A DNA stretch of 64,000 nt. Source: Strigamia acuminata. Taxonomy: Eukaryota. The notes below the pieces were generated by a model, which searched no databases, was not told the DNA's origin, and saw only the letters and a list, made by a program, of their open reading frames with translations. Below, in pieces: positions 3,301 through 14,132 of the stretch. The position numbers and the translations under genes are program-made. Each line of letters starts with the position of its first letter. Position 1 is the first letter of the stretch. The stretch lies in the NCBI GenBank assembly GCA_949358305.1, contig OX442314.1:248001-312000 (forward strand), written 5' to 3'.

Positions 3301-6216
3301 ATTTGTGTCGAACAAAACGCAGGATTTTATCGCCACTTAATTTCCATTTCCCCAAATGCCGCATTTCCGATTCAATTATTTCGACGATCCAAGCGAGGCA
3401 CGCAACTGCGCAATATTTACTCAGAAGATGATCCTTTGGAAAATGAAAAATGAACAAATTAGAAAGAAAACGAGCAAATTTGTCATTCTTATGCATTTTG
3501 GCATCCATTTGAAATCAACTCACCTCTGAATTGGCGTCATCAAAGTGTAGCGCAGCAAGATCCGTCAACTTATTCACACACTCGTCCATCTCGTTCGAGT
3601 CTTCGTACGCTTTGAACAAACTTTTCAACAATTTCAAATACATCTCGAGTCTCTTCACATCATCCATCTAAAAGTAATTATTATTTTTAAAAATTCGATT
3701 TTAAATTCTATCCGTTTCTAACGTGATTCGAAATCCTGATAAGCGCGTAATCGATGATGGACGTGAGGCACGGAGCGATGCACGCGACAACTTCCATCCG
3801 AACCGCATCTTGTGACGATTCTATTAAAATCTAAATTAAAACCGACATTTGTGAATGAAAAATCTATTTCCTCCTATTTTTATACCCGCCGTCCGACTAA
3901 TTTCCACTTCCTCGAGCAGCGAAACGACAAACTTCAAACTGCGGTCGACTTTCGCGAGCGGTAAATACGGACGCGTATTAACGGACGATAAAATCATTTT
4001 CACCGGTCCCAGCGCCATTCCCACACTCGATAGAGCGAGTAAACCCGCGTCCAAACTCAGAACCAACGTCCGCGATGTGCGCTCCATTTCCAAATCCGTC
4101 AAATAAAAATCATCTATTTTGAAATAAAATTATAAAAATTATAAAAATTATAAATTTATAAATCATAAAATCAAATAACCTTTGTCCGTATTTGTATGGT
4201 TGTTTTCCGTTTCGTTTAATCGGTGCATCGTGCGTTTTATGAATTTGCCCACGTCGCTCGATGTTAAATTCGCAGCCGACGGCAGTTGCCGCAACCATTC
4301 GACGCACCGCGAGCGTAATTCAGTGCGACGACTCAACACACCGTTTTGCGCAAACGGCAATAAAAACGACGACAAAATATCGAACGTCACGTCGTCTTTT
4401 TTCACCAATTTCAGAAACGCATCCAAGAAAAAACAATGGACGGCGATCCTCAAATACTTCTCCTGGGTGCGAAGACAATCGACGATCAACGACCTACAAT
4501 AAATCATTTCTATTTCAATCATTTTTATAAAGTAAAAATTTATTACTTTAAATCTTCCAACGCCGTCAGATTCCACGCAGGCGCCACAGGCACAGTCGAC
4601 AGCGAGTAACTAATGTACAATAAAGGCACCGGAGCCCAATTTAAACCTCGAATAGACCCGAGTAAAGAACTAAAAAAATCAACTAAAAAAAGTTTAAAAA
4701 CAATTAATCGATCAAATCAATCCATAATTAATTTATTTTTCAACCGATGAGTGAAGATCCTCGCAGAATGACGACACAGTGCGTGAAAAATCGCGAAAAT
4801 GACGAGACAATCGCGGGAACAGAACCCCTCTGCTCGTTCTGCGACCTCGCGAACAACGACGCATCGTTGATGACGTTTAATAAAGGACCAAAAACAAACT
4901 AAAATAAAAAATTAAAATAATTAAAACAAATAAAAATCATTCGTCCTCACTGTCAGACGTCATACTTGAGCGTCGATGAAATTCTCTTTGGTGAAATTCA
5001 AGCGTAAAAACCGTTCGAGCGCCCATTTTTTGATCAATTTCGAATCGTGCAGAAACATGCGATGAAAAAGCGTCGACAGCAATTCCAAATGAAACGGCGA
5101 AATGTCGCTCGCTTTGATCACCCGGTCGATTTTCCCAAGAACCGGTTTAATGACGTGAACCTTAAAAATCAAATCAAATCAAATCAAATACAAACAAATA
5201 TAAACAAATACAAACAAACTTGAATTCAATACTTGTGTTTCTTCCAACGTTTCGATGATAAGAATGTAATTGGACCACGAAAAATGCTGCGACTCCAACT
5301 TGGCGCGCGACGTCACGTGCTTGAGCACGAAAAGCGCCTGTTTCCGGTGCAGCGAGTTCTCGTGCGCCAGCCCGAACCGAATTAAAAGCCACAAATTCTT
5401 CTCCGACGAAATCCGATCCAAAAAAGACGAAAAAACTGCCTCCTCCGTCATCAATTCCATCAAATTGCACACAATCAGATACCCGTTGCCCACGCTTTTA
5501 CTCTGACAATCCGAATAAGTAAAACTAAAGAAACTCTGCGCACGTTCCCACAGAATTTCCACCAACTCGAGTTTGCTCGCGAGGTCCATGAGTTTCAACA
5601 AGGGGGGCACGACGTCGACGAGCACGAAAGCGGCGAACTGCGAATCGCAACGCGAGAGAACCCAACTCAACGTGCTTTGGAATTGCACCGCAAATTCGTT
5701 GAATTCGACGTTTTTTTTCATTTTTCCAAATAAAAACGTGACGATTTCGAGAGCAACTTTGGGTTTCGAGCACTTTTCCGGGGGCTCACGATCAAATTGA
5801 ATTTGCACACTTTTCTCGCATTCTCGCGCCCATTCCACCACGTTTTCTTCGCCCGTCAACTCCAAACAAAACCATTTGGTGGCTATTGCGACCTCGCAGA
5901 GTTCTCGATTCGTCCCGGCGTGTTCCGACAGCAATATAGGCGTGCAAACGTCGTCGACGATGCGGTTTAATGCGCTCAGTAGACGAGGTTGCGGCGCGGG
6001 ATGTTTTTCATCGATTACTCGCACGATTTCTCGCAATGTGCGCAACAAATTGACGGTTTGATCGCGCGACAAATCGCGTTCAATCTCTCCGCACACATTA
6101 TCCAACACCACGTACAGTTGATCGTCACTGAAAACATTTAAAAGAGTTTTTAGAGTCATTTTTGAAGCCGTAATACCCTCAGCAGCATTCATGTTCTCCC
6201 GGTCGTTGGAAGCCAT
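348..6216 (-). CDS. TARBP1: tRNA (guanosine-2'-O)-methyltransferase TARBP1/Trm3 (multi-exon)
   Basis: The C-terminal SpoU domain is clear ([52 protein letters not shown]), preceded by a long helical N-terminal region over many GT-AG exons. ATG at 6216 (MASNDREN), stop at 348. Confidence 0.9.
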
Positions 6217-6397
6217 TTTGAATCCAGTAGCGCCCTCTGTGATCAAAAACGTCAAGTGTAAAACACAAACAGGAAATTGGCAACTGATCACATCCCGAAG
6301 TTCCGACTCTCAAAAAGGCCGCACAAGCACAAACTCATAATTAGTACATTTTTCCTTTCATCTCGCTCGCATTTTCTTTCCCCCACAGAATGGAATA

Positions 6398-7662: not shown

Positions 7663-8878
7663 TTACGCCGTAATAAGACTGTAAATCATTCTGCAAATGA
7701 AAAACATATAAATAAGTAAATTAATTAATTAATTTCATAATTTACCCGTAAAGATAGTAAAAAAATCCGACCAAATAAAACGCTAATTTAAACCAGCCTT
7801 CCGTTTGTGCTTTGGATAATTGATCCGCGTTCATGATGGTTGTTGGGTCATATAGACCGGGTGAACTCATCACAGGACGGTTTTTGTATCTAAAAATACA
7901 TTTATTCCATATGAATTACAATTTTAACCTTTTTTTTTAACAAAATTTCAAATTTTAACCATTTTTATTGTCAAAATTTCAAAATTTCAGATTTTAATGA
8001 TTTTTATTGACAAAATTTCAAATTTTAACCATTTTTATTGATAAAATTTCAAACTTTTACCATTTTTATTGACAAAATTTCAAATTTTAATCATTTTTAT
8101 TGTCAAAATTTCAAATTTTAACAATTTTTATTGATAAAATTTCAAATTTTAACCATTTTTATTGACAAAATTTCAAATTTTAACCATTTTTGTTGTCAAA
8201 ATTTCAAATTTTAACCATTTTTATTGACAAAATTTCAAATTTTAACAATTTTTATTGTCAAAATTTCAAATTTTAACGAATTTGCTGATATAAACTCAAA
8301 TTTTAACGAATTTTCCAATACAAACTCGAATTTGAACCAATTTTTGTCAATATCAATTAGAATTTGAACGATTTTATCAACATAAATTGTAATTTAACAA
8401 CGTTTTCGATCGTTTATACCTCAGTATGTGGTAGGCAATCAGTGGGATATTTAAAATTAACGTGAACCATTCTCCCGCTACGAAAAACAAAATGTTGAAG
8501 AAGATGTGGATGAAATATTCTGGCAAGACGAGCTGAAAGAAAATTTTACCAAAATAAAAAATTTATTTCTGTATTATTTTAATTCCATTCTGCTGTACAA
8601 TACTTACTGGATTCAAACTGTTGCATTGATCAATCGGGTTTTTGTAATCGGTTTTTAGTTCATCAAAAGCGATAATCTGTGAAGAACAAACGTGGGTTTA
8701 TCAGCTCTTTTTATCTTTCATTTTACGCCCGAACGAATTTTATTTCCAATTCTTAATTCGTTCTTGACGGTTCTTCCAAGTGAGATGCAGCACTTACGTG
8801 AAAAATGGCGAAGAATATTAAGAAAGCGTCGAGAATTAATGCCGCGATGTAACAAAACGCAGCGAACGTAAACGCCAT
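7663..8878 (-). CDS. cni: Protein cornichon (CNIH1/2/3-type)
   Basis: Manually spliced: MAFTFAAFCYIAALILDAFLIFFAIFH / IIAFDELKTDYKNPIDQCNSLNP / LVLPEYFIH... / YDPTTIMNADQLSKAQTEGWFKLAFYL / MIYSLITA*. Confidence 0.92.
7920..8400. repeat. Intronic minisatellite, ~31-nt unit (attttaaccatttttattgacaaaatttcaa)
   Basis: Direct tandem copies inside a cornichon intron, degenerating rightwards. Confidence 0.9.
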
Positions 8879-9646
8879 GATGGCACAGTGGCGCCGTGCG
8901 ACGGCGACATTGACAACTTTTAATCGTACTTAGGTGTATACTTCTTTTTTTAGATGTAGGTCAAATAAAAAAACCTGTTATCAATTCTTTAATATTTCCT
9001 ATTGTTTTTCTATCTTATTTATTTCCTTTTTTGAAACATAAACTTGTTGGCATTGGTGGCTCGTCAGTATTTGTTACTTTGAATTAGTGAACAAAAAATG
9101 ATTTTATTTGATTTAGACGAGACAATTTTTTAATTTCAACTTGACAGATGATGAGAATAATACATTCCGAACAGATTTAATGAAAAAAAAGAAGTTTAAC
9201 GACGAATTTTAAGGCGAAATAGAAATAAAACAAACGGTTTACTCACTCCAAAAACCAAAAACCGGCGGTAGAGGGCGCCACGGTTCGCCCACGTTCACAC
9301 AACCAAAGCAAAACATTGATAAAAGTGAAAGAAAAACAACATGTTTTTCTCCCTTTCAATGCCATACGAAACAAAACGAGCATGACGAATCGTAATTAAA
9401 CAAAAATAAATCTCACCTAACTAGATGGAATTCCACCCTTAAGAAACTATTGGAATTTCCCAGTTCACCTCAGCGGCTGACGTCACGAAACAACACACGC
9501 ACAGGCACATAGTCATAACATACACACAGGCAGAGCTTTCAGCTGGTAGCGAAGGCGAACTGTACGTAGCTTATGATTGGTGATCTAATACAGTCGGCTG
9601 GCTAAATTTGACGCAAAAGAAAAAGCACGGCATACTTTTAGCAAGC

Positions 9647-12600
9647 CTGGCCTCGAGTGGGGACTCAGAAGACGGTGGAGTTTCTCCCCCACCGCGAAAA
9701 AAGCAACGATTGTCTGCCGCCGCTGCTACCATGCAAGCCAATGGCTGTCCTCAACACAATGGAGACACACCAGGCAGCTCGAGTGCCACAGCAGAGAATA
9801 ACGGAGGAGAAATCAACGTCAACGGCAAACCGGACTTGTCCCCCAAGATTAAAACGAGAGCTGATCAAGACATTGTCCGTTTGATCGGACAGCACTTGAA
9901 AGGATTAGGGCTCAAGTGCGTACGACTAATGACTAAAAAATCACATTTATTGAGAATTAACTCGTTTTCCCACACTAAATCTCGCTAAATAATATTTCAT
10001 TCTTTTTTTACGTTCAAACTCGCTTGATCGGCCATTTTTTTTTGTTTTGGGTTTTGCGAGTGATGAAATACGATTTTGTAAGACTCGTATCGGATTTTTA
10101 ATATTTTTTTTTCGAGGGTCGCCGAGATCGATGCTCACGGAAATGACCTTCGATGGTCGAATGGAATGATTAGAACATTAAATAATGCACAATCTGTGAC
10201 GTATTTGTATTTATTTCTCGATTTTTGAGTAGTTTTCGTGCGAAAACGGAAATTAAAAAGTGTCCAACATGGAGTGGCGCCATGTTTGTTACCTTGTACT
10301 CGATTTATCCTCTACTCGACAAATTTGTTTTAATTGCAGTCGCACCGCCGAGCAATTAATGCAGGAGTCCGGTTGTCGACTCGACCATCCGGCCGCGACG
10401 AAATTCCGCAATCACATTTTAGACGGTGAATGGGCCAAAGTGAGTCATTTAAATAATTTAATTTAAATAATTTCTTTTATTTCATTTTATTTTAATTATT
10501 TCAGGCCGAACACACGTTAAATGAACTCAAGTCGTTGCTCGATACACCTTTGGCCTTAGTCGTAAGTAGAATCCTAAAAATTGATTTTATTCTTGTTTTG
10601 ATTTAAAAATTTAAATTTTAGAAAATGAAGTTTCTGCTGTTGGAGCAGAAATATCTTGAGAAACTAGAAGACGGACAAATTTTAGACGCCCTTCATATTT
10701 TACGTAATGAATTGACTCCGCTTCGTCACAACACGAAGCGAGTCCACGAACTGAGCAGGTGCGAAGCCATTTTGATTAAAATTTGCAGCGTTGTATCGAA
10801 CGCGAACTAATAGAACGAAAAATTCAAATGATGTTCATGTTCACCATGTTTGATGATGAAAACGTCGCAAAAATGTTCGTTTAAACGTTTATCTTCATCG
10901 AAACATTCATTTTGATTACTTTTTACAACGAAAACGACTGCTTTACTAAAAAAAATGTGTTTTGTCATCTGAAATCCACAAAATGTAACAAAAAACATTT
11001 TAATTTCTAAAAAAAAAATCTGAAAAATGAACGTGAACTTCGAAAAAACTTTTAGTGAACGAGATACAACGCTGGAAATTTAAATCTGATTAAATTAAAT
11101 TGTAACGCTGAAATTGTTGATATTTAGCTACATAATGTGTGGCACTGGAGAGGAGCTTCGCAGCACCTCGAACTGGGGAGGAAAGGATTCGGATTCCAGA
11201 ACGAAACTCATGGAACGTCTTCAAGGTATAAAAATATAAATTTAATTATAATTTTAATTATAATTTAATTTTAATTTTCTAGTTTATTTACCTCCGACTA
11301 TAATGTTGCCTCCGCGTCGCCTGCAGACGTTGTTGACGCAAGCGATCGAGCTACAGAAAGACCGATGCCCGTACCACAACACGCGAATCGACAGCACGTT
11401 AGATCAAATCTCGCTGCTCATGGACCACGCGTGCAGCAGGTAACGCGAATGAGAGAGAGATGTTTTGGTTTTGACGCCGTTGAGTTGCAGAGAGCAGTTT
11501 CCTTGCGAGACCATCCAAGTGCTCAACGACCATTGCGACGAAGTTTGGTTTTGCAAGTTCTCGAACGACGGCACCAAGTTGGCGACGGGATCGAAGGACA
11601 CGACGGTCATCGTTTGGGAAATGGACACCGTAAATTTAATTTAATTTAATTTAATTTAATTTAATTTAATTTAAGAGCAATTGATTCTGTCGCAGGATAC
11701 GTTAGAATTACGTCACAAGAAAACTTTGGAAGGACATTCTTATGGAGTTTCTTACATGTCGTGGAGTCCAGACGACGCTTACCTGATAGCGTGTGGCCCG
11801 GACGATTGTTCAGAGTTGTGGGTTTGGAACGTGCAGGTGCACATTTCCTGTCTAAATGTTTTGTTTGTGATTGATTTATATTTATATTGATGTTGTTGCA
11901 GACGGGCGATTTACGGGTTAAGATGAGTCATTCGCCCGAAGATAGTTTAACTTGTTGTTCTTGGCATAAGGATGCCAAGAAATTCGTGACTGGGGGAACA
12001 CGGGGACAGTTTTACCAATGCGTAAATATCAATTTTGAAAAGCGATCTTTTTAGCTCAAAAAACCCGCTACGGCTACTAAACAGTCATTTTGTTGACGCC
12101 GTTTAGTCTACGAACGTTTTGTCGACCGGGAGAATGTTGGGTCGCTTTTTCGACTCAGTGAACGAGTACGTTTAGTTGACGTGTCATCTTGTCTGTGTAA
12201 AAATGCACTTTTCTGTGTAAGAATGCACTTTTCTGTGTAAAAATGCAATTTTTGGTCTGAAAATGTAATTTTTGTCTGAAAATGTAATTTTTGGTCTGAA
12301 AATTGCAATTTTTGGTCTGAAAATTGCAATTTTTGGTCTGAAAATTGCAATTTTTGGTCTGAAAATTGCAATTTTTGGTCTGAAAATTGCAATTTTTGGT
12401 CTGAAAATTGCAATTTTTGGTCTAAAAATGCAAATTTTTGGTCTGAAATTGCAAATTTTTGGTCTGAAATTGCAAATTTTTGGTCTAAAAATGCAATTTC
12501 TAGGGAAAAAATAAACAAAAATAAAATAAATAAAATAAGACGGTGTAAAAAGTCGACTAAATAACCCTATCCCCAAAAAACGACCAATATAATGTTTGAT

Positions 12601-14132
12601 GTGGTCCATAAAAAGTTGATTTTTGAGCTAAGAACGTTCATTTTCAATAAAAATTTAAACAAAAAAAAATTATTTTTTTAAAATTGTAATTTTTGAATTC
12701 AGGATTTGGACGGAAACGTGTTGGACTCGTGGGAAGGCGTGCGCGTTCAATGCCTTTGGTGCAAACGAGACGGCAAAGTGGTTCTCGCGTCCGACACCCA
12801 CCACCGGATCCGCGGCTACAACTTCGAAGAACTCACCGACTTTAACATGTGCGTTGCGAGTCGTAAGCAGAAAAACAAACCCGTGTTGTAATTTGTGTAA
12901 CGTTGACTTAGCATCCAAGAAGACCACGCAATCATGTCATTCTCGTGCAACGAGTCGGGCCGCCTCGCTCTTTTAAATGTAGCAACTCAGGTGAATTGAA
13001 TCGAATCGAATTTAACAAATTTTAACATTGTTTGTTGTGTGTGTTGTTGTTTTTACAGGGTGTGCACCTATGGGACTTACAGGATAGATGCCTAATCCGC
13101 AAATTCCAAGGTGTTACTCAAGGTTTTTACACGATTCACTCTTGTTTCGGTGGCGTGAATCAAGATTTTATCGCCAGCGGGAGTGAAGGTGACACGGAAG
13201 GTGAAAGACAATTGTTGCGCATTTGAGTACTAAAGACGCGTTTTTATTCTGTTTTCTTGTCAGATCACAAAGTGTACGTGTGGCACGTCCGTCGCGAATT
13301 GCCCATCGCCATTCTCTCGGGCCACATGCGCACCGTCAACTGCGTGAGTTGGAACCCGACTTTCCCGCAAATGTTGGCTAGTGCCTCCGACGACGGAACC
13401 GTCCGCATCTGGGGACCCGCGGAGCAGTATCGCAAATCGAGACGAACCACGTCATCTAAGCCCCAACAGGCCGATGGTGATTGATTTGATTTGATTTGAT
13501 TGAATTGATTTGATTAATGTAATTCATTCTTCTATGCACGAACAAATAATTATTTTTGCAAAATAACTATTTACATAACTATTTACCGTATTACCTCGCA
13601 ATAAGCGGCATGCCGTACAAAAAATTTATACCAGCATGCCGATATAAAGCGAAAAATGCCGGTGTAAAGCGAAAAATGCCGGTATAAGTGAAAAAGTGGG
13701 TTTTTTGTTTTTAATTACTTTAAAGAGGCTGAATGAATAATTATGTTGGTTTTTGGGCTTAAAATTTGATTTTTCTTAATTTTCTGGGTAAATTTATAGA
13801 AATTTAAGCCAATTTCTTCAATTTTGGAGATCTAAAAAGGATTTTATGCTTGTTTTGGCTGAATTCTCATTTAGAAAAATTCGTACTCACTTACACCGGC
13901 ATGCTGTTAAAAACAAGGTTTATCGGCATGCTGGTAAAACTCGAACTACACCAACATGCTAATGGCTTAATGTGAAGTAATACGGTAACTATTTACGAAC
14001 AAATTGATTGATTTGCATTTTTTTAAGTCTCAAATTGATGGAATGCGTTTTTGTGCTTCAGATTCTGTATCATATTGTTCACCTTCGCCACCACCACCTC
14101 AGAGTTCAACCATTGCCCGTTCACAGAATTAA
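9647..14132 (+). CDS. WDR26: WD repeat protein 26 (CTLH/GID complex subunit); first AUG at 9731, candidate CUG start at 9647
   Basis: MQANG start, LisH ([15 protein letters not shown]), CTLH ([24 protein letters not shown]) and WD40 repeats ([34 protein letters not shown]). The last exon 14062-14132 is inferred. Confidence 0.92.
10787..11072. mobile_element. MITE-like intronic element
   Basis: Inverted termini cagcgttgtatc / gatacaacgctg in a WDR26 intron. Confidence 0.5.
12200..12500. repeat. Intronic minisatellite, 21-nt unit (aattgcaatttttggtctgaa)
   Basis: Tandem copies in a WDR26 intron. They produce the spurious FSDQKLQ-repeat ORFs. Confidence 0.9.
13586..13985. mobile_element. Non-autonomous Tc1/mariner-pogo-like MITE
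   Basis: Termini ccgtattac...gtaatacgg flanked by TA on both sides, in the last WDR26 intron. Confidence 0.65.

Follow-up and report, generated by a model that had tools for sequence, protein, structure and literature searches.

The WDR26 gene in the 64,000-nucleotide stretch of DNA analysed here (the window) encodes an in-frame N-terminal extension that is orthologous to the one published for human WDR26, and this extension is real and deeply conserved. It is likely that a CUG codon in strong context, 28 codons before the AUG, yields a 618-residue form bearing a predicted nuclear localization signal (NLS) together with a 590-residue form. Under this proposal, scanning ribosomes would start at both the CUG and the AUG; the 618-residue form would carry an acidic serine tract and the segment PPPRKKQR, a predicted nuclear-import signal, and the 590-residue form would be made without PPPRKKQR. 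The steps differ in how firmly we hold them: going by the comparative evidence, initiation at the CUG is very probable, a leaky output of two isoforms is predicted with good assurance, recognition of the basic motif by importin is a reasonable expectation, and a mostly cytoplasmic short form is a tentative prediction. What is new here is a myriapod-like case with transcript support, a set of loci in which a weak AUG replaces the CUG, an upstream ACG...TAG element, and a splicing alternative that had been missed.

On the plus strand of the window, the CTG at 9647 stands in the context GCAAGC CTG GC (A-3, G+4), exactly 28 codons before the ATG at 9731, and the frame ahead of that ATG is open for 49 codons, back to a TGA at 9581-9583, with no in-frame ATG. 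The preliminary description had claimed a frame open back to this TGA without an AUG, a strong-context CUG (AGC CUG GC) adding 28 residues, and the gene identity WDR26; its coordinates are exact and its letters agree with ours, and the identity holds in a model of 14 coding exons (13 of 13 introns GT-AG, the short ones 51-76 nt) whose protein, 590 amino acids counted from AUG 9731, groups with named WDR26 proteins and has the LisH-CTLH-WD40 architecture, the WD40 match having been checked by Pfam on P0055, a close relative of the window protein. A Pfam search of WDR26 exon 1 returned no family. Window WDR26 and that of the millipede Chamberlinius form one group in two trees, the first a quick tree and the second made with FastTree (support 97 and 98), which points to a myriapod as the probable source of the window. 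The arrangement of start codons alone is modest evidence, 17 of the 626 first-ATG-after-stop sites on the plus strand of the window having an upstream in-frame strong-context CTG; it amounts to more than chance because it is conserved in relatives.

Table 1. Features of the WDR26 leader, extension, and flanking DNA (window coordinates unless a locus is named).
Feature	Position	Strand	Basis
TGACGTCA palindrome, likely promoter element	9478..9485	+	upstream DNA comparison
5' leader in spliced contig, CAGCTG (9540-9545) near its 5' end	9535..9646	+	X3 contig
Out-of-frame AUG uORF, 10 codons, poor context (C-3, A+4)	9573..9605	+	window letters
Candidate 62-nt intron, would put AUG 9573 in frame	9580..9641	+	donor score 5 of 9; no joint in X3
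In-frame TGA bounding the open frame, within the transcribed leader	9581..9583	+	window letters, X3 contig
Out-of-frame ACG-three codons-TAG (A-3, G+4), putative minimal uORF or alternative acceptor	9627..9641	+	DNA lineages, protein rows
Initiation context GCAAGC CTG GC, CUG at 9647-9649	9641..9651	+	CTG, A-3, G-2, G+4, C+5 in 9/9 lineages
In-frame N-terminal extension, 28 codons	9647..9730	+	open frame and peptide conservation
Ser/acidic tract SSGDSED	9653..9673	+	alignment column counts
Basic motif, predicted monopartite NLS	9683..9712	+	K-[KR]-x-[KR] in 64/66 proteins
WDR26 stretch from AUG	9731..14132	+	X3 contig joints, exon model
SPPRKRVR or CPPRKRVR from a poor-context AUG	L019:17, L021:228, L022:1144, L023:629		

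Related loci were drawn from a metagenome scan by LisH pattern, not by the extension, and among the loci listed (24 of the 82 pattern matches) 18 have the CUG, four have an AUG, L020 is incomplete, and L024 is without the motif. Merging L002-L011 and L017-L018 reduces the 18 CUG loci to eight lineages (myriapod-like, termite, hemipteran-like, mayfly, thrips, ant, spiralian-like, and one unplaced), placed by best named match or tree, with the weak placements uncertain. The codon is CTG in all nine of the window and these listed lineages, with A-3, G-2, G+4, and C+5 equally invariant, though the lineages are related by descent and such counts are therefore not independent. As a control, CTG makes up 3 of 27 codons at three invariant leucine positions of the same exon, where five, five, and four codons are used, and 9 of 60 downstream leucine codons. 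Upstream in-frame stops lie 5 to 53 codons from the CUG across the nine lineages, and those of L016, L001, and L017 are only 5, 9, and 11 codons away, with no in-frame ATG. Between CUG and AUG there are 26-40 codons and no stops, and indels keep the frame. The longest of these extensions, 40 codons, belongs to an ant-like locus (L017:931-1416) with an intron after the first AUG, an arrangement that would explain hymenopteran gene models starting MxNYR.

Codon substitutions also change character at the CUG. Pairwise comparison of eight lineages (L016 omitted for a deletion) gives 275 identical, 185 synonymous, and 100 replacement pairs over codons +2 to +21 and 48, 21, and 267, respectively, over codons -15 to -4: changes are of coding type after the CUG and not before it, and protein-type conservation begins at the CUG. 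Codon conservation is higher in the extension than in the LisH part (modal share 0.75 vs 0.51), and this raised synonymous conservation points to an RNA-level constraint. One could suppose that what is conserved here is an untranslated RNA or DNA element whose peptide is never made, as a mean column identity of 68% across lineages might suggest, but changes after the CUG are mostly synonymous, indels keep the frame and bring in no stops, the human extension peptide has been detected (PMC5834625), and a candidate hairpin has neither covariation nor extra stability; we regard the chance of such an element as remote. That hairpin, CGGUGG/CCACCG at +27 to +48, has 88.5% of cells paired with no compensatory change, 153 of 500 shuffles reach as high a value, and its stability relative to synonymous recodings (z -1.47 to +0.93 in nine sequences) is unexceptional; we rejected it as a by-product of GG..PPP. 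An enhancing hairpin about 15 nt downstream of the CUG, an optional feature of conserved non-AUG extensions, was not found.

At the protein level, the motif is present in 91 of 182 proteins, from searches that were seeded with the motif and so provide no estimate of frequency. Nine of the 91 are without the L/M-A/E-S/T anchor, and the 66 distinct anchored proteins have Leu (63) or Met (3) at the anchor. Leu anchors are preceded by S, T, I, R, E, D, or A without exception (63 of 63), residues that all allow a purine at -3; none of them needs a pyrimidine-first codon, against a background of 0.35. Carriers span insects, crustaceans, spiders, molluscs, a tunicate, fish, corals, and a hydrozoan: named ones include Coptotermes, Ephemera, Timema, Frankliniella, Diaphorina, Plutella, Oratosquilla, Cherax, Hyalella, and Notodromas among insects and crustaceans and Gadus, Cyprinus, and Pristiophorus among fish, and among other carriers some have downstream matches of 88-94% to Trichonephila, Saccostrea, and Octopus, some fall into clusters with Styela and Hydractinia, and some match Oculina and Pocillopora at 94-98%. 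The spider, mollusc, tunicate, hydrozoan, and coral carriers are known as protein only. The annotated Styela, Hydractinia, and coral proteins begin after the motif. Aligned translated leaders show the peptide to be conserved, as the preliminary description had expected for bilaterians, and its reach is wider than was claimed there, since the Hydractinia cluster and corals also carry the motif. A single origin of the extension before the cnidarian-bilaterian split is, on this distribution, strongly favored.

The human WDR26 leader has an ACG, a CUG 24 nt later, and then ASASSSSDSDTGGASPPPRKKPR (PMC3105428); the preliminary description had pointed to a very similar human segment, and that paper bears this out. 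From the CUG onward, the window peptide aligns with the human one through Ala-Ser, an acidic Ser tract, GG, and SPPPRKKxR to MQANG, with a purine at -3 and G+4 in both, although the window extension has 28 codons and the human one is much longer (PMC3105428). The ACG lies at -24 and in frame in human, whereas in the window it lies at -20, out of frame, and is closed by a TAG; the flanks are similar (PMC3105428). Human ACG and CUG are conserved from human to fish, and two bands appear on western blots (PMC3105428). The same study reports the extension in vertebrates and flies only and takes the two as apparently independent origins (PMC3105428; Ivanov et al., 2011), the extension of the Drosophila orthologue (CG7611) starting at AUU and not CUG, and a Drosophila-type extension being reported absent in mosquitoes (PMC3105428). 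No named dipteran is among our extension matches, but because the extension is spread so widely we favor a single origin with later change in flies. Mass spectrometry has detected a peptide of the human extension, whose level dropped on EGFR inhibition, unlike that of the canonical protein (PMC5834625). Two observations speak against a human CUG start: an initiation-site table gives an AUG and a GUG 32 codons upstream of it, which is after the basic motif, and its available rows include none for the CUG or ACG (PMC12718117), and GENCODE v35 annotates no near-cognate WDR26 form. A search of the WDR26 and CG7611 literature that covered few subscription papers found no paper on an invertebrate CUG, the ACG...TAG element, or a test of the NLS.

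Transcript evidence comes from one of three runs: X3 is read as cDNA on its GT-AG joints, not from an RNA record, and X1 and X2 behave as DNA. The X3 contig covers 9535-9915 unbroken and continues into exons joined at GT-AG sites, and because it spans them, the TGA at 9581, the upstream AUG at 9573, and the CUG lie on one spliced molecule. Against a CUG start, the preliminary description had raised an AUG-bearing exon spliced in frame and transcription beginning downstream of 9647; the contig shows no such exon, and its 5' end lies 112 nt upstream of the CUG, an end that is not proof of the true transcript start. Compared with the window, X3 has single-letter changes and, in exon 1, an in-frame deletion of 3 nt (differences at 9595, 9803, 10397, and 10664), with one further exon 1 difference, and for this reason we take it to come from another individual or strain. 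In X1 and X2, read depth rises to tens to hundreds of times that of the flanks over high-copy repeats in the WDR26 introns (10773-11166, 12150-12550, and 13531-14120), and a tandem array of ~20-nt units in intron 9 lies among them.

The sole AUG of the transcribed leader, at 9573, is out of frame. Removing an intron at 9562-9641 would supply no AUG, as the preliminary description had said, but a second GT donor at 9580, leading to the same acceptor, was missed there, and removal of 9580-9641 puts AUG 9573 in frame. The extension could then be made from an AUG by splicing, with a conserved TAG at -8 serving as the 3' splice site: the join is in frame, 62 nt falls within the 51-76 nt of the gene's short introns, the acceptor at 9641 looks normal, the TAG is kept in 6 of 9 lineages, and P0005, known as protein only, has an M 14 residues ahead of the anchor. 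Yet the donor scores 5 of 9, at the bottom of the range of the 13 real WDR26 donors (5-8); X3 keeps 9580-9641, and a 9579/9642 joint is absent from the 11 joints listed for it; the cDNA-like, intron-free L001 and L012 keep the TAG with 118-125 nt upstream; L001, L012, and L017 have no donor and ATG pair scoring at least 5; and splicing leaves an invariant CUG for leucine, with its A-3, unexplained. We therefore treat an AUG-supplying splice form as a minor rival, quite improbable as the source of the extension, and since contigs drop rare splice forms, it may occur as a rare form.

Room for a further upstream WDR26 exon is limited by a cornichon gene (Pfam PF03311) on the minus strand at 7745-8879, which is arranged head to head with WDR26 and appears to start ~770 nt from the CUG; the arrangement suggests a shared promoter. 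In a set comprising the window, L002, L013, L014, L015, and L016 among the lineages compared, the palindrome TGACGTCA, presumably CRE-like, occurs exactly at -140 to -169 from the CUG in five of the seven lineages with at least 290 nt of upstream DNA and with one mismatch in a sixth, and CAGCTG occurs at -107 to -132 in five of the seven. Together these likely represent a promoter layout deeply kept in distant protostomes. Farther out, the minus strand has a 376-codon open frame at 5182-6309 with no Pfam match.

Just ahead of the CUG, six of the nine lineages have an ACG at -20 and a TAG at -8, with three free codons between; five of the six ACGs have A-3, the one in L012 having G there, and five have G+4. 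Of 61 protein rows, 15 are compatible with both ACG and TAG, 1 with ACG only, 3 with TAG only, and 42 with neither, a co-occurrence explained by shared descent because the named rows are insects and malacostracans. L001 keeps the element behind an in-frame stop nine codons up, which excludes an in-frame start further upstream as the explanation of the 'HG..L' that precedes the CUG in translation and marks it as a nucleotide feature. A minimal uORF is our preferred reading of ACG...TAG, the alternative acceptor discussed above being its rival, and such a uORF may draw off a share of the ribosomes ahead of the CUG, thereby adjusting the isoform ratio. L001 also has a 20-codon AUG uORF that runs from -68 to -6 and ends at the conserved TAG; in the window, L002, and L016, an AUG in the same frame lies at -65 to -98 and its frame stops earlier.

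In four loci (L019, L021, L022, and L023), the Leu-Ala-Ser start is absent and an AUG stands at the beginning of the basic motif. This AUG has a pyrimidine at -3 and U+4 in 4 of 4, and the next AUG has a purine at -3 in 4 of 4. If leaky production of two isoforms is selected, the exchange of a strong-context CUG for a weak AUG is to be expected. In the FastTree tree, L019 and L021 form a weakly supported group close to crustaceans, and the replacement may have been a single evolutionary event. Alternatively, translation of the leader itself (the ACG mini-ORF, the CUG start, and a possible pause at PPP) could be what is selected, setting the amount of the AUG form with the long protein as a by-product. 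The antizyme-inhibitor leader provides an analogy, and the invariant proline run, the raised synonymous conservation, and the conserved ACG...TAG would all fit, but the acidic tract and the post-proline K-[KR]-x-[KR] are kept from corals to fish, and the basic motif survives in the very AUG-start loci that have lost the rest, which makes this explanation very improbable.

Returning to a long form selected for its peptide, the K-[KR]-x-[KR] core, which we take to be the classical monopartite NLS consensus, is present in 64 of 66 distinct anchored proteins (KKQR in the window), and SSGDSED presumably provides CK2-like sites by consensus. The NLS-like motif claimed in the preliminary description is borne out as a motif; its role is predicted from the match. 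The NLS of SV40 large T antigen, which has CK2 sites upstream, shows a similar layout, though the likeness is one of layout only, with Ser-Ser and acidic residues ~10-15 residues before Pro-Pro and a basic cluster (PMC3022542). Most WDR26 is in the cytoplasm and a small pool is nuclear (PMC7616709), and high-order complexes in the nucleus depend on it (PMC11659599); both observations would fit a minor imported form. The claimed division into NLS-plus and NLS-minus isoforms stands for the long form, which has the motif, and is weakest as a clean split: vertebrate AUG forms have KKKKR ahead of the LisH motif, and corals have LKRK, so the short form may be imported by its own basic cluster. WDR26 dimerises, and mixed dimers could be imported as well.

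The basic segment of a CUG-made long form might instead be a binding or pseudo-substrate motif, for example for the acidic pocket of its own propeller. NMNAT1 and YPEL5 have basic motifs to which the WDR26 propeller binds, that of NMNAT1 doubling as an NLS, and the degron it recognizes in NMNAT1, YPEL5, and HBP1 (K-R-x-aromatic) resembles the extension in being short, basic, and located in disordered sequence close to the propeller (PMC7616709). However, the K-R-x-(W/Y/F) signature occurs in 0 of 66 extension proteins, all of which are without the aromatic residue, and exchanging the NMNAT1 motif for the SV40 NLS impaired ubiquitylation (PMC7616709). A pocket-binding role is accordingly improbable next to the predicted import signal.

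Annotated WDR26 proteins mostly begin at the AUG, and human mutant studies used isoform 1 or 2 cDNA (PMC7616460), constructs that, we infer, lack the extension. If the extension is an import signal, those constructs leave out the form on which the nuclear WDR26-CTLH pool, whose substrates include NMNAT1 and lamin B, would depend, and variants annotated as 5' UTR could matter in Skraban-Deardorff syndrome. For the history of the family, one ancient origin would replace the published separate origins in vertebrates and flies. Whether the ACG of the window is homologous to that of human is, judging from the leaders, an even call. More speculatively, and we think it rather unlikely as a whole, the ACG variants, the AUG replacement, and a rationed NLS-bearing WDR26 may be read jointly as a tandem ACG-CUG module older than the protostome-deuterostome split, with a peptide older than bilaterians: vertebrates would use the ACG as a second, in-frame start; in insects, malacostracans, and myriapods it would be out of frame and open a four-codon ORF whose end lies 5 nt ahead of the CUG; and one crustacean-like group would have exchanged the CUG for a poor-context AUG. 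If this joint reading is true, the amount of CTLH ligase in the nucleus would be governed by start-codon stringency throughout the animals.
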